This document shows positions 8,346 to 22,301 of a DNA stretch of 64,000 nt, piece after piece. The stretch comes from a virus. The stretch's first letter is position 1; each line of letters begins with the position of its first letter. The stretch is from IMG/VR virus record IMGVR_UViG_3300024983_000001, positions 64,001-128,000 of that record. The stretch is one strand, 5' to 3'. The notes beneath the pieces were generated by a model. It was not told where the DNA came from and did no database searches. It was given only the letters and a program-made list of their open reading frames with translations. The position numbers and the translations under genes were made by a program.

Positions 8346-9092
8346 TCACTTATCGTCTTTGGTTGGGCACTTAAAACCAGTTTCTTCAAGAGCTTCTTTG
8401 TTGAGATCATCCATACACATACGGGCCATAGCCGCAGCCTTGAATCCCATATTCCACATTTCACGGGAGTTCTTCAACATTACACAGTTTTTGTCAGACC
8501 ACGTAGAGCCGAGATTGATTCCGAATCCAGGAACTGAAATACCGCCACTAGACGAACCCATACAGGTATCATTGGAACTAGTTAATGCAGAGGCACTAAC
8601 ATCAGGTGTATTACGAATCGTTACTTTGCTGGGACTCGTAAAAGTGACATTTTGTGAGGCATTGTTGGAATTAGCGTTTGCGCCGGCGCCTACGGAACCG
8701 CCACTAACGTCACCAACTGTTGCATTGACGTCACCCACTTTGGCGGATGGAGAAAAGTTTCCGCCGCCATTACCAACAGAGGAATTTCCACTATCTTTAA
8801 CGGACGAATTACCACCCGCGACGTTACCTACCGATCCACCTGCTCCACCAATACCAACTCCCACCCCAACTCCAAAGCCGGTTGCGGTCGAACTTGAACT
8901 CGATGATGAACTTGAACTCGACGATGAACCATTGGAACCGCCATTACAACTATTGCCTTGACAATAGTGAGTGTTGGTATGAGTGTTGGTTTTGGTATCA
9001 CCATGTTTGCCGTTACCGAGGGGTTGGGTTGCGAAAGCCGAGCCGGAGACAAGCATAGCAGCTAATGCAACTGCAAGTAATGTTTTATTCAT
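8346..9092 (-). CDS. secreted Gly/Ser-rich protein with Cys-containing C-terminal domain
   Basis: MNKTLLAVALAAMLVSGSAFA signal peptide; AAAGGAGA RBS; poly-Ser tract. Confidence 0.8.
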   Translation of the reverse strand: MNKTLLAVALAAMLVSGSAFATQPLGNGKHGDTKTNTHTNTHYCQGNSCNGGSNGSSSSSSSSSSSSSTATGFGVGVGVGIGGAGGSVGNVAGGNSSVKDSGNSSVGNGGGNFSPSAKVGDVNATVGDVSGGSVGAGANANSNNASQNVTFTSPSKVTIRNTPDVSASALTSSNDTCMGSSSGGISVPGFGINLGSTWSDKNCVMLKNSREMWNMGFKAAAMARMCMDDLNKEALEETGFKCPTKDDK

Positions 9093-9124: not shown

Positions 9125-9218
9125 GACTCACGGTAATTCCCGCTGCCATTGAAGTTACTCTTTAGGCCGGTGAACTTTGTGCCCCAGTCTTTCGAACTGG
9201 TATACCCTTTACATGTAT
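9125..9218 (-). ncRNA. c-di-GMP-I (GEMM) riboswitch aptamer
   Basis: Minus strand reads AAAGGGUAUACCAGUUCGAAAGACUGGGGCACAAAGUUCACCGGCCUAAAG...AUGGCAGCGGGAAUUACCG, matching the GEMM-I layout (GAAA tetraloop, CCUAA receptor, GYAGCGG, UUACC). Confidence 0.88.
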
Positions 9219-12575: not shown

Positions 12576-13949
12576 TTACATAGTGCTGTTTGCTCGCACT
12601 TCATCGAACGTATATTCCCTAACAATTTTTCCATTAACGAATACAGTTTCAAGTGCATCAACCACTCCAGGTGTTTCAATGTCAGAAAAATACCCACCAT
12701 CTTCACTCTTATACAGAGTAACACGCCCCTTCTTCGACCGCTTGCCAACATCGGTAACAGGATCCTTATACACATCAACCCAGTTTCCATCAATGCACGC
12801 TGCAGACGTTTTCATCGCAAATTTCAAAGTGTCGCGGTTTACCTGTTGAAGCAGTGCTCCACCCATACCAAAAGCAACGTTGTCAGCACTATATCCAGCA
12901 AACTTCAATGTACGAAGAATCGATTTAATGCTACCCTCATTGATTCCATCGCCCTGAATAACACGTACTACCGGATTAAGAACTTTATATCCCTTCTCAT
13001 TCACTGTTGATCCAAATGCAGCATCAAGTGCTCGGACAACCTCACACACGACCGAAGCAGGATCACCACTATCGGGGCGAATAACAACAGTAGCACCACT
13101 ATCAAGCACTTCTTGTTTCAGTTCTTTACCCCACAGATTTGTGACGGCATTGAGAATGTCGTACGAATCACTAACAGCCGCAAACATCTTGCCTTTGCCA
13201 CCAAACTGTTTAATCATGTTGCGGTAAGCATCAACCTCGTTTTTACGACCCCACGACGTGTAGGAGCTGTGTTCACCAGCCGGAATCGAGTAACCAGGCA
13301 TACCAATTGCATTGTAATATTTCTGTGCAAAACGAATACCCGATACAGTGTCCGACCCCATAAAGTTGACCAAGTGGGCAGCGCCGCCAATACCAGCACT
13401 TTCAAAGGAACTAACGCCACGGGCGCCAAAATCATGCAGTTTGAACGACAGACCTGCAGGATCACCAGTCTCTTCTAATGCTGCACGAATCACTTGCTTG
13501 ATGCTCCAACTATTGGTAGCAACAGTCGTACCATACCATACAGCACGAAGAATTGCAGGCTCGATATACGACGTCAGCCAGAAACATTTGTCGTCAGTGT
13601 TTTCAACGGTAACAAGTACGTTTTTTGTACCGAGGACCATACCTTCAGGAACGGCACGGACAACAAGAGGTAGATAACCAGCGTATTTGTCCACAATATA
13701 CTGCCATCCGGCTCGGTTAAACGGTTCACCGTGAGCAGCGAAGAATTCATCAGCTTCTTCAATCATCTCTTGAGTGACGGGCTTTGTCAGATATTCCTTT
13801 AAGAAAATTTGAAGACCGAACATAACGGTTTTGTCATATTCGCCGCCTCGAGACTCAATGTAAGAGAACACTTTGGTGGTATTGGGTGGATATTGAAGAA
13901 AGTGTGATGCTTTGTATGAATCAGTATTAAGAATAATGTTTGTTTCCAT
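12576..13949 (-). CDS. nadV: nicotinamide phosphoribosyltransferase (NAMPT)
   Basis: TDSYKASH, LHDFGARG, PAGEHS, IRPDSGDP, IQGDG, FGMGGALLQ. Confidence 0.95.
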   Translation of the reverse strand: METNIILNTDSYKASHFLQYPPNTTKVFSYIESRGGEYDKTVMFGLQIFLKEYLTKPVTQEMIEEADEFFAAHGEPFNRAGWQYIVDKYAGYLPLVVRAVPEGMVLGTKNVLVTVENTDDKCFWLTSYIEPAILRAVWYGTTVATNSWSIKQVIRAALEETGDPAGLSFKLHDFGARGVSSFESAGIGGAAHLVNFMGSDTVSGIRFAQKYYNAIGMPGYSIPAGEHSSYTSWGRKNEVDAYRNMIKQFGGKGKMFAAVSDSYDILNAVTNLWGKELKQEVLDSGATVVIRPDSGDPASVVCEVVRALDAAFGSTVNEKGYKVLNPVVRVIQGDGINEGSIKSILRTLKFAGYSADNVAFGMGGALLQQVNRDTLKFAMKTSAACIDGNWVDVYKDPVTDVGKRSKKGRVTLYKSEDGGYFSDIETPGVVDALETVFVNGKIVREYTFDEVRANSTM

Positions 13950-13996
13950 GATAAAACTCCTTTATCAAAAATTATACAAACCGTCTATCAGTTTGT
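13949..13996 (-). promoter_or_regulatory. two-hairpin RNA leader, copy 1 (GAUAGAC loop plus RBS hairpin)
   Basis: ACAAACU-GAUAGAC-GGUUUGU; UGAUAAA-GGAGU-UUUAUCA. Confidence 0.8.
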
Positions 13997-14011
13997 TTGG
14001 TACTACAAAAA

Positions 14012-14257
14012 TTAACGAGAACGGTCCACCGGACTCGCTTGTTTAATTGTTGCTGTGATTCCACTGAACGTCGGATCGCCAGGGCCACGATCATACATAT
14101 CGTACGAACGCATTGTTGCGTTAAATTTGATGTCAATATCAGACAGGCTTACGTCGATATTATATTTGTCGCGAAGTAAATTGAAGACAGCTTCTTGGAC
14201 GAGCTTGTGTGCATCAGCCTCCGAGAAATCAAACGTCATCTTGGTATTAATATTCAT
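14012..14257 (-). CDS. hypothetical protein carrying the NAD-gene leader
   Basis: AAGGAG RBS; own promoter at 14316-14345. Confidence 0.7.
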   Translation of the reverse strand: MNINTKMTFDFSEADAHKLVQEAVFNLLRDKYNIDVSLSDIDIKFNATMRSYDMYDRGPGDPTFSGITATIKQASPVDRSR

Positions 14258-14304
14258 GTTAAGCTCCTTAACAAGTTATGAAGGTGAAGGGTCTGTCCCT
14301 TCAC
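14257..14304 (-). promoter_or_regulatory. two-hairpin RNA leader, copy 2
   Basis: GUGAAGG-GACAGAC-CCUUCAC; UGUUAA-GGAGC-UUAACA. Confidence 0.8.
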
Positions 14305-14352
14305 ATGTTATTTAATATTATAACTAATAAAATATATAAGTCAACACTTATT

Positions 14353-14511
14353 TTAAGCGTAAGTATCAATTCGACCTTTTGGTACTGGTTTCTTTTTCAC
14401 ATCAGGATCATTTTCCGTCTTAACAATTCGTTTAACTGGCTGAACCTTTGTTGTTGACGATTTGTCTAACAACTTTGTGATGGGTGAAACAAATATTTCT
14501 CTTAACAACAT
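14353..14511 (-). CDS. small basic protein (MLLREIF...)
   Basis: AAGGA RBS before ATG 14511. Confidence 0.5.
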   Translation of the reverse strand: MLLREIFVSPITKLLDKSSTTKVQPVKRIVKTENDPDVKKKPVPKGRIDTYA

Positions 14512-14555
14512 ATAATTCCTTTGTGATTGTGTATCTTTATATTTACACAAATAGA

Positions 14556-14909
14556 TCAAAGTTCACTTAACTGACGGTCAATATCAGCGATTTGTTCGAG
14601 CAAATCTCGTTTTTGCTTTTCAAGTTTGGTACGTTCCCAAACTTCATCAGGCTTCGAAATTTTAATCAGTTCAAAATCTCCGCCTGCCCCCCATTGCCAA
14701 AAACGTTCCATTTCTACGGCCATATCGATAATGTCGCCTAGACGACCTTCAAAATAGCCAAGTGATGGTTGATAGTGCGGTCCGTGAAGATCACAATTGG
14801 GATCTTCCCCCTTAACATGCCACAATCCATAGTCATCAAGATCATATTTTTGCAGCAACTGCCGATAATTCCACGAAACAATATATTTGTCTTTTGCTTT
14901 TGAGTCCAT
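14556..14909 (-). CDS. hypothetical phage protein (GEDPNCD...FWQWGAGG) carrying the NAD-gene leader
   Basis: AGGAGG RBS; promoter at 14959-14988. Confidence 0.75.
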   Translation of the reverse strand: MDSKAKDKYIVSWNYRQLLQKYDLDDYGLWHVKGEDPNCDLHGPHYQPSLGYFEGRLGDIIDMAVEMERFWQWGAGGDFELIKISKPDEVWERTKLEKQKRDLLEQIADIDRQLSEL

Positions 14910-14958
14910 AAGGAAATCCTCCTAATGATTTGAATGATTAACGTCTATCGTTAATCAT
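14909..14958 (-). promoter_or_regulatory. two-hairpin RNA leader, copy 3
   Basis: AUGAUUAAC-GAUAGAC-GUUAAUCAU; AGGA-GGAUU-UCCU. Confidence 0.78.
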
Positions 14959-14983
14959 AATAATACACTAATACTTATTTATG

Positions 14984-15508
14984 TCAACTATTTTTGAAAC
15001 TTCCTATTAACATTTGTGTTTTAACAACACCTGGGGACACTTCCCTCGTGTAGTGGAATCCGTCTGGATCCAATTCCAATATTTTTTGGCCGAGGATTCG
15101 TTCTGCTTGAGTGTTAGGTATTGGTTTGCCACCTAAATTCAACATTACCTTTTCCAAATTGCCGCTAAACTCACCCCACGATTTGTTTCCTGTGATATCA
15201 TCCGAAAGAATGGCCTTCAACGCATTTTTTCCATCTCTCGTATCGTTATGAAAAACTAATCGAACTTTATGCCCACTACTATTACGATAGATTACTCCAG
15301 CAACGATTTTACCATCAATAAACGACGCCTTCCATACTCCAGGTGTATTGATTAAATTGTCTAAATTTGCACCACTTAATCCCATTCCCGAACCATATTT
15401 GTCGTATGTATTTTGCAATAACTGCCATACATAACTGGCATAACGCTTTCGTTGGGTAGGTGTTACAAGATTTACAAAGTTCTCACACAGAATTTCGTAT
15501 ATTTTCAT
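14984..15508 (-). CDS. late protein, putative internal head protein
   Basis: Late promoter at 15541; N-terminus MKIYEILCE. Confidence 0.7.
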   Translation of the reverse strand: MKIYEILCENFVNLVTPTQRKRYASYVWQLLQNTYDKYGSGMGLSGANLDNLINTPGVWKASFIDGKIVAGVIYRNSSGHKVRLVFHNDTRDGKNALKAILSDDITGNKSWGEFSGNLEKVMLNLGGKPIPNTQAERILGQKILELDPDGFHYTREVSPGVVKTQMLIGSFKNS

Positions 15509-15543
15509 GTGGCATTTACCTAATATTGATTTAATATCAATAT

Positions 15544-15750
15544 TTATGACATCATGTCTGTCAAATCTCGTCCGTTTAAATAAGTAATCAAAAAATCGTG
15601 AAGATTGTATGTGACACCATCATACCCAAGGATAATATCAGGTGGTATGACTGATTCAACGACCACCATACCAGTGTTTAACATCCAAAATGCAGGGTCT
15701 CTAGGTGCAAGTTTGATTATATCTCCCGCATTAATAATAACTTCATACAT
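15544..15750 (-). CDS. hypothetical protein
   Basis: ORF within operon. Confidence 0.5.
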   Translation of the reverse strand: MYEVIINAGDIIKLAPRDPAFWMLNTGMVVVESVIPPDIILGYDGVTYNLHDFLITYLNGRDLTDMMS

Positions 15751-16303
15751 TTTTATAAACTAAATCATTCATGATGTGATGTACAGTGTCCACATTTTTT
15801 CCGTATACATTATCAACTTCGAAGAAAGGTACGCCTGTATCAATCAATAATGCTCTCAAATCCTTATCAATTTGAATAGCCTCATTCTCATCTTGATTTC
15901 TACCAACCGTTTCATACGGAACCCCCCGTCGAATAAGAACGTTGATGTTGTTGTATGAATTGTATGTGTCCATTACATAATCAAAAAATGATGGGGGGAA
16001 ATCCTCTGGCATATACATAAACCCCAACAACAACGAAGTGTCAGCAACAATATAATCTACTTGACCCACCAAACGTCTAAACCTGTTATTTTGTTTACTG
16101 AAAATATAATCTTGTTCCGTCAACATATGATGACGACCTTCAAAGGTATAATCTTTTGCAACTTCGGGTACATACTCAACCTTCCCTTTTTGGGCTAGCG
16201 ACATATAGTAAGCGAGACCAAGTGCAGTAGTGGATTTACCAACGCCGGGTCCACCCAACATATTGATTATAGTAACGTCTTTGTTATTCGAATATGGTAA
16301 CAT
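15743..16303 (-). CDS. P-loop kinase/ATPase (NadR-kinase-like, AAA_28)
   Basis: GGPGVGKST Walker A; VPEVAK; GRNQDE.EA. Confidence 0.75.
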   Translation of the reverse strand: MLPYSNNKDVTIINMLGGPGVGKSTTALGLAYYMSLAQKGKVEYVPEVAKDYTFEGRHHMLTEQDYIFSKQNNRFRRLVGQVDYIVADTSLLLGFMYMPEDFPPSFFDYVMDTYNSYNNINVLIRRGVPYETVGRNQDENEAIQIDKDLRALLIDTGVPFFEVDNVYGKNVDTVHHIMNDLVYKNV

Positions 16304-16314
16304 TTCATCTTCCT

Positions 16315-16524
16315 TTATAAGTTGTGCATTTGCTTGTCGTAATAATATCGCGCAAAATCACAAATCTCCGCTGCTTGTTGTTTTGTACATATGATAACAC
16401 GTGTACACGGATCGGTAATTAGTTGTTGATCCATCAACCATTTAATCATTCCGGAATTAGGATCCGCACATATACCAATATGCACAGAGTCCAAATCGTT
16501 TAGTTCGGTGGGGATGTTGTTCAT
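16315..16524 (-). CDS. hypothetical protein
   Basis: ORF within operon. Confidence 0.5.
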   Translation of the reverse strand: MNNIPTELNDLDSVHIGICADPNSGMIKWLMDQQLITDPCTRVIICTKQQAAEICDFARYYYDKQMHNL

Positions 16525-16886
16525 GGCATCATTGGCGAAGGTACTTCACCTCTCGTAACGCACGGCAAGTTGGAAACATCGGGATTTACACTTGTAAACA
16601 CTTCTTCCCCGTCTTTGGCTGCAAACAATGCGGTATTGTTATCAAGACTGTATATGGTCCAGCCACCTGAAACCATTTGCCAACCAGTCAGTTTATCTTC
16701 GGGTCCAACATCAGGAAATTTAACCAACAAAACATATTTGTCTCCAGATGATGGATTGTGAATACCCCAGCATGCTTTTTCAGAGCGTGCGTAATAATCT
16801 AGTGCTGCTTTTGCATACACCAATCCCGTACTAAAAGAATCATCCTTTGATGCGCCCTGTGACGACGTATCTTCCTTTTTGCGCAA
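16521..16886 (-). CDS. hypothetical protein (start uncertain)
   Basis: ORF within operon. Confidence 0.5.
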   Translation of the reverse strand: MRKKEDTSSQGASKDDSFSTGLVYAKAALDYYARSEKACWGIHNPSSGDKYVLLVKFPDVGPEDKLTGWQMVSGGWTIYSLDNNTALFAAKDGEEVFTSVNPDVSNLPCVTRGEVPSPMMP

Positions 16887-16950
16887 CCCAACAACATTAA
16901 CGTCATTAGTGCAGAAACTATCATATGTTTTTTCACAACAAACTCCTCAA

Positions 16951-17361
16951 TTAGTGATTAATAACATAACAGCGCGACAACAAAGCCATGATAACTTTGT
17001 TGTTATAATCTCCACAACGACCATTAACTAATTCGGTTGGGGTAACCCATTGAACGTTAATATCTCGTTCCATTTGAGAGGCTGCTTCCGATTCGACGGT
17101 ATGAACGTATCTAAATGTTGTTACGTGATAGCCTCCATCATCAACACCTTCATACAACTGAATCAATTGTCCACGTTGTGTAACCAATCCAGTTTCTTCC
17201 TGTAATTCTCGTATTGCTGCATCAATAGGTTTTTCGTTGTCTTCAAGTTTTCCACCGGGAAGACCAAAAACATTGTATTCACCCCTAACAGATGCGGCAA
17301 GAATCTTACCTTCTCTGTTAAAGACTACTACACATGCAGCATTACGAGTTTCACCATTCAT
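16951..17361 (-). CDS. Nudix hydrolase
   Basis: GGKLEDNEKPIDAAIRELQEETGL Nudix box. Confidence 0.9.
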   Translation of the reverse strand: MNGETRNAACVVVFNREGKILAASVRGEYNVFGLPGGKLEDNEKPIDAAIRELQEETGLVTQRGQLIQLYEGVDDGGYHVTTFRYVHTVESEAASQMERDINVQWVTPTELVNGRCGDYNNKVIMALLSRCYVINH

Positions 17362-18389
17362 TAAATTTGCCCAAGAAAATATTGAATTATGTGATAATGA
17401 TCCTCAAAACATTTCGATTCGTCAAGCTCATTTAATGGAATCCACTTTGCTTTTTCAGCATCATCATTACCTTTAACTTTTGGAAGGTCACCGGCCGGTA
17501 GCTCAATGAGGTACGCATGTGTGATTGTGCGCCCACGAAGAGACCTGTTGGGTGTATCAAACACATGAGATGTTTTGACACTACCACGGAGAACTGCCTC
17601 CGGTACTTTAATTTTAGTTTCCTCGCGAAGTTCACGAATTGCCGCGTCAAGCAGCCGTTCGTTTTGATTAACAAATCCACCCGGCAATGCACCAAGTCCA
17701 CGACCTGGGGCGGCTCGACGTTTAATCATCAGTACATGTCCGGACTGAACAACAACAGCATCAACAGTAACAAAAGTTGGAGCATACGGTGCCCTATCCC
17801 ATGAGTTTTTGTAGGCTTGAATATAAAAATATTCTTCCACGAGTACATAAAATCCTGGCGTTTTCATCCAATCAACGATATAGCTCTCGACAGCTTTTGA
17901 AACGGTTGGGTACACATGTTGTTTAACAGCAAACATTTCTTCGCGAATTTGTGTGGCATTTATACCTTGAAAATTAGGTACTTCAACAACACTCCATTGT
18001 GGAAACAGCTTTAGATAAAAGCTACTTTCGTCTTTACTGTGACCAATAATACCTATTTTGTGAGGGTTGGGTACGGCTATATAATCATCTTCTGCAATAA
18101 CACTATCAATAGTGTTTTGAATATCACGAACCCACTTTTGGTCATTGTATGGTTTATCTTTAGCCGCGACAACAACATAATTGGTATGTGAGGACCCCAT
18201 CGCAGCAAGAATCATTTGCTTGCGCTCGACAAAATTCCATGGGTTTTTAATGGTTCGTGGTTGGTTAGTAGAACCAACCACGACAATGACTTTTTCGGCC
18301 ATTTCACACGCCTGTTTGAGCACTGCTTCGTGACCATTGTGAAACGGTGAAAAACGACCGATATAAATTAGATAATTAAACTTTTTCAT
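17361..18389 (-). CDS. nadM: bifunctional NMN adenylyltransferase/ADP-ribose pyrophosphatase (NadM-Nudix)
   Basis: GRFSPFHNGH (HxGH), KNPW, NATQIRE; C-terminal Nudix box and FEDHYHII. Confidence 0.95.
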   Translation of the reverse strand: MKKFNYLIYIGRFSPFHNGHEAVLKQACEMAEKVIVVVGSTNQPRTIKNPWNFVERKQMILAAMGSSHTNYVVVAAKDKPYNDQKWVRDIQNTIDSVIAEDDYIAVPNPHKIGIIGHSKDESSFYLKLFPQWSVVEVPNFQGINATQIREEMFAVKQHVYPTVSKAVESYIVDWMKTPGFYVLVEEYFYIQAYKNSWDRAPYAPTFVTVDAVVVQSGHVLMIKRRAAPGRGLGALPGGFVNQNERLLDAAIRELREETKIKVPEAVLRGSVKTSHVFDTPNRSLRGRTITHAYLIELPAGDLPKVKGNDDAEKAKWIPLNELDESKCFEDHYHIIQYFLGQI

Positions 18390-18437
18390 AATAGAGCTCC
18401 TCTATCAAAATTGTAATACGAAGTCTATCTTCGTATT
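18389..18437 (-). promoter_or_regulatory. two-hairpin RNA leader, copy 4
   Basis: AAUACGAA-GAUAGAC-UUCGUAUU; UGAUAGA-GGAGC-UCUAUUA. Confidence 0.8.
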
Positions 18438-18493
18438 TTATTACTACAAATATTACATCATAATTATATTACACTAAACCATTAATGTCAACT

Positions 18494-19565: not shown

Positions 19566-20330
19566 GTGCCAAGAAAAAATACAATAAACGATATTCAAAG
19601 TAAGTTAGACACTAAATGGGGTAAGAACAATTATGTGTGTCGCACATACACAAATCTCGATGTTGAGGCATTGTTTTATTGTACGTTACACAATGAAGAA
19701 TTTTTATGTATCCCAAAAAATGCTTTTTGGGGTAAAAACATTTCTCCTGGTTGTAACAAATGTAATCTAAAGAACAAACGACAATCACACGCATTTACAA
19801 CACAGGAGTTTATCTTTCAGGCCAATAAGGTACATTCAAACAAGTACAATTATTCCGACGTTGTTTATATAAATGCGCACACAAAAGTAAAGATTGGTTG
19901 TGAGAAACATGGTCCCTTTTTCCAATTACCAAATAACCACACGTCACACAAGCAAGGATGTCCGGTTTGTAAGTGTTCTAAAGGAGAGACAATCATTGAA
20001 AGTTGGTTGTCGTTGAATAATATTCCATATATCCGTCAAAAAACTTTTAATGGATGTGTCAATAAACGACAATTAAAATTTGATTTCTATATACCATCTC
20101 ACAATCTCTGTATTGAGTTTGATGGTGAGCAACATAGTTTAGTTGGCAAATTCACCAAACACAAAGACAAAGCCCAACAACTATTTGATTATATACAAAG
20201 TAATGATCGCACCAAAAATGATTACTGTAATCAAAATAATATTGGAATGTTACGAATTCCATATACAGAAATTCGTAACATATTCAAAATTCTTGACGAT
20301 CACTTCAATATCTTCCGTAACGACCTCTGA
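19566..20330 (+). mobile_element. free-standing homing endonuclease (Zn-ribbon repeats plus Vsr/PD-(D/E)XK-like domain)
   Basis: H..KY.YS.V.Y.NAHTKV.I.C..HG, GCP.C, FDFYIP...CIEFDGEQH; AT-rich and antisense to flanking genes. Confidence 0.8.
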
Positions 20331-21411: not shown

Positions 21412-21584
21412 AAGGGGACCTTTAAGTTTAATGAATTCACATTCTACATTATTCTTAATAAAGGTCAACAAATTTGTGTGTTGACATATTTGCAGTTTTG
21501 GTGTAATTATATCAAATATTGTCAATCTCGAAACATTTAAAATGTTCCCATAAATACATACAAAAATTGAGAGGAACATGTAAA

Positions 21585-22301
21585 ATGACGAAACCAATTA
21601 TTGTGGGTGAACGAAGAAACAATCTTGAATTTGTTCACAAATTCAAAGATGGTTCTTACACAAAATATAAATGTTTGTGTTTGGATTGTGGTAGAGATAC
21701 AATAATACATGCTAATAATTTTGGTAAAAACAAAAATTGTGGTTGTACGAAAAAAAACCGTAGCAGAAAGGTGGGTGATGTTAAGAACGGACTTACTATT
21801 ATAGAAAAGTTGTATAAAGGGAACGTTGTTACCAAACTAAAGTGTTATTGTTCACATTGTGGTAACAACGCGGCAATTATTCCATATACTATGTTTGGAA
21901 GACAACAGAGTTGTGGTTGTTTTGATGTAAGAACACATAAAAATCATCCAAACTTTAAAGGATATGAAGGTATCTATAGTGAAATGTGGAAACAGTTACA
22001 TTCCAATGCAACGAAACGAAATTTGGAATTTACCATAACGATCGAATATGCGTGGCAGTTGTTTATAATGCAAAACAAAAAATGTGCATTGAGTGGGATA
22101 GAAATACAAATGTGGCCTGGTTCACATTATTTAGAACGTAGTAAGGGTACCGCCAGCCTGGATAGAATAGATAATAAATTAGGATATGTTGTTGGCAATG
22201 TTCAGTGGGTACACAAAGATGTAAATAGGATGAAATCGGACTTCTTGCAAAGTGAGTTCATAACATGGTGTATAAGGATAGCAAAAAATGAGAATAATTG
22301 A
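21585..22301 (+). mobile_element. HNH-type homing endonuclease
   Basis: C.C..CG...CGC repeats; SLDRIDN..GY..GNVQWVH..VN.MK; GAGG RBS. Confidence 0.8.

Follow-up and report, generated by a model that had tools for sequence, protein, structure and literature searches.

The question raised by this locus is why four genes of one phage begin behind the same structured leader, and which factor reads it. The window considered here, i.e. the whole stretch of 64,000 nucleotides analysed (positions 64,001 to 128,000 of IMG/VR virus record IMGVR_UViG_3300024983_000001), carries on its minus strand a nicotinamide adenine dinucleotide (NAD) cluster encoding NadM-Nudix, a second Nudix protein, an AAA_28 kinase-like protein, the products of two small open reading frames (ORFs) and NadV/NAMPT. 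The source phage contig (257 kb, 41% GC, completeness estimate 78%) occurs in bioreactor and wastewater metagenomes, and no RNA data set was listed for it. NAMPT and NMNAT make up the NARP2 pathway (10.1101/2024.02.11.579819). We conclude that the leader shared by nadM, nadV and the two small ORFs is a cis-regulatory RNA not yet catalogued, which probably serves as a translational operator bound by an enzyme. From sequence comparisons, we infer with a probability of about 60% that it is an autogenous operator bound by NadM-Nudix; binding and direction of control are predictions, and the effector is a more tentative one.

Four leaders in the phage NAD cluster

A first-pass annotation of the window had reported the same leader before nadV, nadM and the two small ORFs, and the four copies were indeed found there on the minus strand. 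The sequence GAYAGAC occurs at 34 sites genome-wide. Flanking stems measure 7-9 bp at these four and reach no more than 2 bp at the remaining 30; the chance expectation for sites with such stems is 0.06. A covariance model scan of the phage genome gave matches at these four places only. GAYAGAC had been described as a constant 7-nt loop: the constancy of its sequence holds, but not the loop size, as an invariant G-C pair closes a pentaloop, AYAGA. From the end of GAYAGAC to the AUG there are 33 nt (a coordinate difference of 34) in all four copies, in line with the constant spacing previously claimed. The second hairpin reported at the Shine-Dalgarno sequence is likewise present in all four, with a GGA(G/U)Y pentaloop, the Shine-Dalgarno GGA inside the loop and a 3' arm reaching the start codon. 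Only 13 of the 337 genes with GGA at Shine-Dalgarno distance have a stem of at least 4 bp there, those of nadM and nadV being the two longest. The structured leader thus overlaps the initiation region of nadM and of pathway genes, as is expected of an operator.

All features below lie on the minus strand, and the hairpins were delineated by folding. Before nadM, hairpin 1 (18415..18437) comprises 9 bp, including the G-C closing pair, with loop AUAGA, and hairpin 2 (18389..18407) comprises 7 bp with loop GGAGC, its 3' arm running to the A of the AUG. In the leader of the 117-aa ORF, hairpin 1 (14934..14958) has 10 bp and loop AUAGA, and hairpin 2 (14907..14927) is made of 4 bp, a U-U mismatch and 3 bp that include the AUG, with loop GGAUU. 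The 81-aa ORF is preceded by an 8-bp hairpin 1 with loop ACAGA (14284..14304) and a 6-bp hairpin 2 with loop GGAGC (14257..14273) that extends to the A of the AUG; in a related strain this leader shows two differences, one turning the loop into the consensus AUAGA and the other an A-U pair into G-U. The nadV leader is intergenic, 3' of the 81-aa ORF, with an 8-bp hairpin 1 that includes one U-G pair (13976..13996, loop AUAGA) and a 7-bp hairpin 2 that also extends to the A of the AUG (13949..13967, loop GGAGU).

Sigma70-like promoters, assigned by consensus match only, precede three of the four copies, the nadV copy being intercistronic. They are predicted for the nadM operon (18463..18491, 12/12 consensus match), before the 117-aa ORF leader (14960..14987) and for the 81-aa ORF-nadV unit (14317..14344). 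The -10 hexamer of the second ends 1 nt before hairpin 1, and its transcript would retain about 5 bp of the stem. The sequence UUUGUAGUA, previously noted upstream of both nadV and nadM, does occur before both genes, with its position offset by 1 nt; it was rejected as a part of the motif, its core being present in only 5 of 119 instances.

The element in phages and bacteria

These 119 distinct instances (55 before nadV, 48 before nadM, 1 before nadA and 15 before small ORFs) were collected from loci of nadM and nadV homologues drawn from IMG/VR and GTDB. The leader stands before nadM, nadV, nadA and genes that head nadM operons at more than 100 distinct loci of phages and bacteria; the first-pass annotation had named an association with NAD genes as support for its reading. 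Since the motif is also present before chromosomal nadA, nadM and nadV, its role is not specific to anti-defence.

Covariation was assessed on 102 leaders picked by protein homology and loop sequence only, to avoid circularity. Pairing over the seven flanking positions was 99, 96, 88, 79, 83, 80 and 73%, versus 36-43% in a slid control. In a 72-sequence alignment, which was selected for stems and is therefore descriptive rather than a test, 91% of cells were paired and 13 of the 14 pairs showed double-sided changes. On the mRNA strand, G-U combinations outnumbered A-C (57 vs 14). The loop lies 29-41 nt from the AUG, and the -10 box lies 1-46 nt from the motif. Because of this covariation, the strand bias of G-U pairs, the spacing tied to the AUG and the variable distance to the -10 box, the comparative data show the element to be an RNA acting at translation initiation rather than a DNA palindrome, in agreement with the first-pass annotation.

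In its general form the element is bipartite and about 55 nt long: an 8-bp hairpin with a purine-rich pentaloop is followed by a single-stranded linker of 20-30 nt, free in sequence, and by a 6-bp hairpin that presents the Shine-Dalgarno GGA in its loop and keeps the bases up to the AUG paired (median about -4 kcal/mol). Viral contigs were scanned twice for the pattern itself, without regard to genes, and most matches were due to chance; 27 matches passed the filter (hairpin 2 of at least 4 bp, AUG at 28-35 nt), nine each before nadM, nadV and small ORFs, and nadM was found in the same locus for seven of the nine small ORFs. Whole-genome model scans score only some candidates and overlook variant loops, and leaders were therefore also read directly; these scans gave mostly one or two matches per genome (range 1-4), at NAD genes, distant second matches being nadM. 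The motif was also seen at nadA, both in a phage and in nadA-nadM operons of Burkholderiales, and at one SPFH gene. In the genome of locus L106, an SPFH/Band 7 gene immediately 3' of nadV (L413:1555-2580) stands behind a third copy of the motif.

The canonical form was found in the cultured phages LucasX, RTH11, RpAliso, B23 and BUCT-ZZ01, and variant loops with the same geometry in phages BF, RaK2, EJP2, BcepSauron, Ahp1 and RsoM2USA. Loop 1 ranges over AUAGA, AGAGA, GUGGA, GGAGU and hexa- and tetraloops. Synechocystis nadM, whose product is identical to PDB 2qjo, has a variant leader right after the -10 box, with loops GGGGA and GGAGU. At this gene (L526:1440-1494, G554), a GT-N7-AC sequence is located at the -10 region, with the two-hairpin variant just downstream and separate from it; control at the DNA and at the RNA level may be stacked there. 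Five phage nadM leaders (L004, L068, L071, L072 and L079) have an additional, third hairpin, placed after hairpin 1 and before that of the ribosome site. At the nadM and nadV promoters of L114, L125, L126 and L148, a conserved DNA palindrome with GTGGCA/TGCCAC arms lies 5' of the RNA motif and is a candidate transcription-factor box.

As for novelty, no Rfam 15 family matched the region at gathering score, the best hits (E 0.46-0.55) falling far short of the gathering scores, and the models of NAD+-I and NAD+-II gave no match even at E 10, in keeping with the first-pass view that the leader does not resemble these riboswitches. No description of the motif was found in the literature searched, which covered few subscription journals and did not extend to complete supplements of motif surveys.

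Candidate readers of the leader

Presence of the motif follows that of NadM-Nudix. Among 50 bacterial genomes with nadV, none of the 15 without NadM-Nudix carried the motif, versus model matches in 24 of the 35 others and variants in more. Ten more genomes with nadV only came from an independent set of 301 Burkholderiales genomes, again without the motif at nadV (0/10); nadM-only genomes, i.e. those without a nadV match, retain it at nadA in nadA-nadM operons. The motif is also missing from three complete phage records that have nadV but not NadM-Nudix, and from phage Mx1, whose match spans the NMNAT domain only. With nadV leaders alone pooled, 101 of the 131 genomes that encode NadM-Nudix carry the motif, as against 0 of the 29 that do not. 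These 29, the three phage records and Mx1 among them, are scattered on the NadV tree, several being sister branches of rows with the motif, and the motif is kept at nadV also where nadM sits elsewhere in the genome.

CsrA (PF02599) was found neither in five motif-bearing bacteria nor in the phage, and NrtR (PF21906) was not found in three of five, with no match in the phage, G012 and G037; neither protein, though both were named by the first-pass annotation, is required. NadM-Nudix is the only tested protein common to all motif-bearing genomes, except for one 9.9-kb fragment. Some of these genomes lack NadV, some CsrA and some NrtR, so that NadM-Nudix is left as the candidate. Moreover, the loop class is identical in the nadM and nadV leaders of all 70 genomes compared (seven classes), though their stems differ, which would be expected if both leaders co-evolve with one protein. 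The GGAGU-type loops present in both hairpins in Alphaproteobacteria are likewise what two half-sites would be expected to show. Among Burkholderiales, loci L472-L496 include recurrent nadA-nadM-Nudix operons without nadV, and several of these genomes encode a second NadM-Nudix paralogue (L516-L521) that has neither the leader nor the basic residues described below.

Enzymes that read leaders have precedents: the thrS operator of Escherichia coli places two hairpins beside the ribosome-binding site, and Bacillus PyrR recognises a binding loop. As in these systems, stem-loops in the leaders of a pathway would be recognised by one of its own metabolic enzymes or by an enzyme homologue, and the two hairpins adjoin the ribosome-binding site as in thrS; here, however, binding is a prediction, there is no sequence or Rfam match, the protein fold differs, and neither tRNA mimicry nor a terminator/antiterminator pair is evident. 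NadM-Nudix is oligomeric, and the oligomer would bind both hairpin loops, clamp the weak hairpin 2 and so block initiation of nadM, nadV, nadA and the genes that lead operons. The outcome would be negative feedback on a pathway that consumes phosphoribosyl pyrophosphate (PRPP). Such feedback would be sensible because NARP2 overproduces NAD+, costs PRPP and proved toxic to E. coli on cloning (10.1101/2024.02.11.579819). More weakly, the ligands of the enzyme itself might tune occupancy, e.g. NAD+ favouring binding and ADP-ribose release, by analogy with NrtR, whose Nudix domain is related to that of NadM and which ADP-ribose releases from DNA (PMC2330246). In the phage, repression would then lift once host defences cleave NAD+. 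The full version of this scheme, in which NadM-Nudix moonlights as a sequence-specific RNA-binding repressor of a nadM/nadV/nadA regulon, its NAD+/ADP-ribose sites serve as the sensor and phage NARP2 is raised only when host defences destroy NAD+, is more tentative, and we place it somewhat below even odds.

Several points weigh against NadM-Nudix as the reader. The motif is missing at nadV in 30 of the 131 NadM-bearing genomes, and some NadM-Nudix lineages lack it altogether. A tree-corrected test had only six well-supported independent pairs, of which 4.3 changed the same way and 0 the opposite way (p 0.125), and is underpowered; several genomes scored as lacking nadM are incomplete metagenome-assembled genomes. 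Loop classes were assigned post hoc, after the data were seen, duplication of the leader followed by stem drift could also yield loop concordance, and one Burkholderiales lineage is discordant (AUAUA at nadA, GUGGA at nadV). Finally, NadM-Nudix has no known RNA-binding domain, and no RNA complex was present among its top structural matches. Eight basic residues of the Nudix domain (K223, R225, R255, K259, K261, K304, K306 and K313) are, as a set, enriched in motif-associated NadM, with means of 6.4-7.7 of 8 in the two largest motif-associated groups vs 2.6; the choice of positions was post hoc and the test on independent pairs yielded p 1, so that they serve as a lead only. In NadM and NadV trees, loop class did not separate NadM from NadV as the reader.

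The alternative that survives best, though we consider it unlikely, is a minimal riboswitch in which two docking loops, in the manner of guanidine-II, would bind NAD+, nicotinamide mononucleotide (NMN), ADP-ribose or PRPP and gate the ribosome-binding site. The architecture is that of guanidine-II (mini-ykkC), i.e. two small hairpins with conserved loops, a free linker of variable length and the second hairpin at the ribosome-binding site (PMC7266159), and the associated genes belong almost exclusively to NAD synthesis, de novo and salvage. However, guanidine-II has identical tetraloops, whereas the present element has purine-rich pentaloops, lies at NAD-synthesis genes and has no Rfam match. 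Kissing loops were also tried and rejected: considering canonical pairing only, the best complementary run between the loops is 0-2 nt in 119/119 instances, and the loops share almost no mutual information. Loop 1, moreover, varies widely, and metabolite sensing gives no reason for the absence of the motif at all 29 nadV genes without NadM-Nudix. Direct ligand sensing, which the first-pass annotation had proposed alongside sensing through a protein, is accordingly not favoured: conservation is confined to about five loop nucleotides, the loops in both leaders of a genome drift together, and presence follows NadM-Nudix. NAD+-I (nadA motif) and NAD+-II (pnuC motif) are also cis RNAs before NAD genes, and NAD+-II also involves the ribosome-binding site (PMC7749635). 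They differ from the leader, which has no conserved internal loop and no pseudoknot, and their genes and taxa are others (Acidobacteria nadA and Streptococcus pnuC, respectively). The tandem aptamer domains of NAD+-I were not recognised, the nadA motif model giving no Rfam match, and two plain hairpins stand in place of the P1/P1a with internal loop of NAD+-II. A pseudoknot between loop 1 and the ribosome-binding site, as in NAD+-II, was rejected, as a 5-nt complementary run exists in only 29 of 119 instances; loop 1 seemingly pairs with the ribosome-site arm in the phage nadM and nadV leaders, but this is not general.

We regard as quite unlikely that a general host factor (S1, a standby site, CsrA or another RNA-binding protein) reads or tunes the leader, which would merely travel with the nadM-nadV cassette by descent. 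The leader and its genes are linked in cis and move together, and a GGA shown in a hairpin loop at the Shine-Dalgarno sequence recalls CsrA/RsmA sites. Yet the loop register departs from the ANGGAN hexaloop of those sites, loop 1 usually lacks GGA, and CsrA was not found in the five motif-bearing genomes. Such a factor should also have other targets, whereas genome scans gave 1-4 matches, at NAD genes, and the motif stays at nadV when nadM is located elsewhere.

An mRNA processing or stability signal is improbable. The hairpins would then be substrates of a nuclease or pyrophosphatase, possibly the Nudix domain itself, or a 5' stabiliser, which would suit the copies that start within a few nucleotides of the predicted transcription start and the action of other Nudix enzymes at RNA 5' ends; internal intercistronic copies, e.g. 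that of the phage nadV, are conserved equally, however, and the spacing follows the AUG, not the 5' end.

The weakest alternative, a DNA-level element (NrtR-like operator, cruciform or PeSL-type promoter cassette), has in its favour that sigma70-like promoters precede three of the four phage copies, with a -10 box only 1 nt away in one case, but it is very improbable and largely refuted already, given stems that are free in sequence around a fixed and asymmetric loop, G-U pairs biased to one strand, a promoter distance that is not fixed, the lack of NrtR in the phage, and the position of the Synechocystis GT-N7-AC (an NrtR site according to PMC2330246), which overlaps the -10 region 5' of and apart from the hairpins. 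The NrtR regulon does overlap in targets (nadM-nadV, nadA), and NrtR has a related Nudix domain with ADP-ribose as operator-releasing ligand; it differs in binding a 21-bp DNA palindrome via a winged helix (PMC2330246). An NrtR box was rejected, as the arms are not conserved in sequence and PF21906 was not found in the phage, G012 and G037; NrtR is absent from the phage and some motif-bearing bacteria, and both elements stand side by side in Synechocystis. PeSL cassettes of T4-like phages are composite repeats of terminator and promoter that stand in front of unrelated genes of hyperplastic regions (PMC4122927), whereas the present hairpins lie downstream of the promoter, their targets are NAD genes and the motif also occurs in bacterial chromosomes.

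Neighbouring genes and implications for NAD metabolism

The identities previously given to the two enzymes were borne out by domain, PHROG and structure matches. nadM-Nudix (17361..18389, minus strand, 342 aa) encodes an NMN adenylyltransferase/ADP-ribose pyrophosphatase (PF01467 and PF00293; PDB 2qjo, E 1.8e-98), whose predicted model aligns to PDB 2qjo with a TM-score of 0.93. nadV (12576..13949, minus strand, 457 aa) encodes nicotinamide phosphoribosyltransferase (PF04095, PF18127, phrog_448). Two further genes of the cluster, recognised by domain search, have no leader of their own: a stand-alone Nudix hydrolase adjoining nadM (16951..17361, minus strand) and the AAA_28 (NadR-kinase-like) ORF (15743..16303, minus strand). 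The latter lies within the nadM transcription unit and, resembling the NadR kinase domain, could add nicotinamide riboside salvage. The 117-aa ORF (14556..14909, minus strand, phrog_33851) and the 81-aa ORF (14012..14257, minus strand, immediately 5' of nadV) have no assigned function, and the protein atlas returned none for either. A homologue of the 117-aa ORF leads the nadM operon with the same leader in locus L038, and both small ORFs are for this reason probably passengers or relics of operon rearrangement; a similar ORF occupies the same place in L003.

Elsewhere in the window, an IMPDH/GMP reductase-family gene (PF00478, 22288-23538, plus strand) is a further nucleotide-metabolism gene near the cluster. 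Two ORFs on the strand opposite to their neighbours (19566-20330 and 21519-22301, plus strand) look by eye like homing endonucleases, and in the related strain (run X7) a 90-nt stretch at 16814-16905 is swapped for 91 different bases. A c-di-GMP-I riboswitch (RF01051, 57.5 bits; 9129-9216, minus strand) lies downstream of a sigma70-like promoter and precedes a gene for a 248-aa Ser/Gly-rich protein (8346-9092) with a signal-peptide-like start and no Pfam match; c-di-GMP control of a phage gene is unusual. Among the phage homologues, a 771-aa NadV (L067:6986-9301) contains an insertion with a weak intein match (E 0.011).

Known controls of NAD metabolism at the RNA level are few, and the literature searched yielded no account of the regulation of NARP2 as a counter-defence pathway of phages. 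The motif offers a widespread and easily scored candidate regulator of NARP2 that points to one reader, and Synechocystis PCC 6803 together with the cultured phages that carry the canonical form (LucasX, RTH11, RpAliso, B23 and BUCT-ZZ01) are ready test systems. Were the element a riboswitch instead, it would form a new and very small class. If NadM-Nudix does bind it, an enzyme with a structure public since 2008 would have an unrecognised second job, and NAD homeostasis would gain a post-transcriptional layer alongside NrtR.

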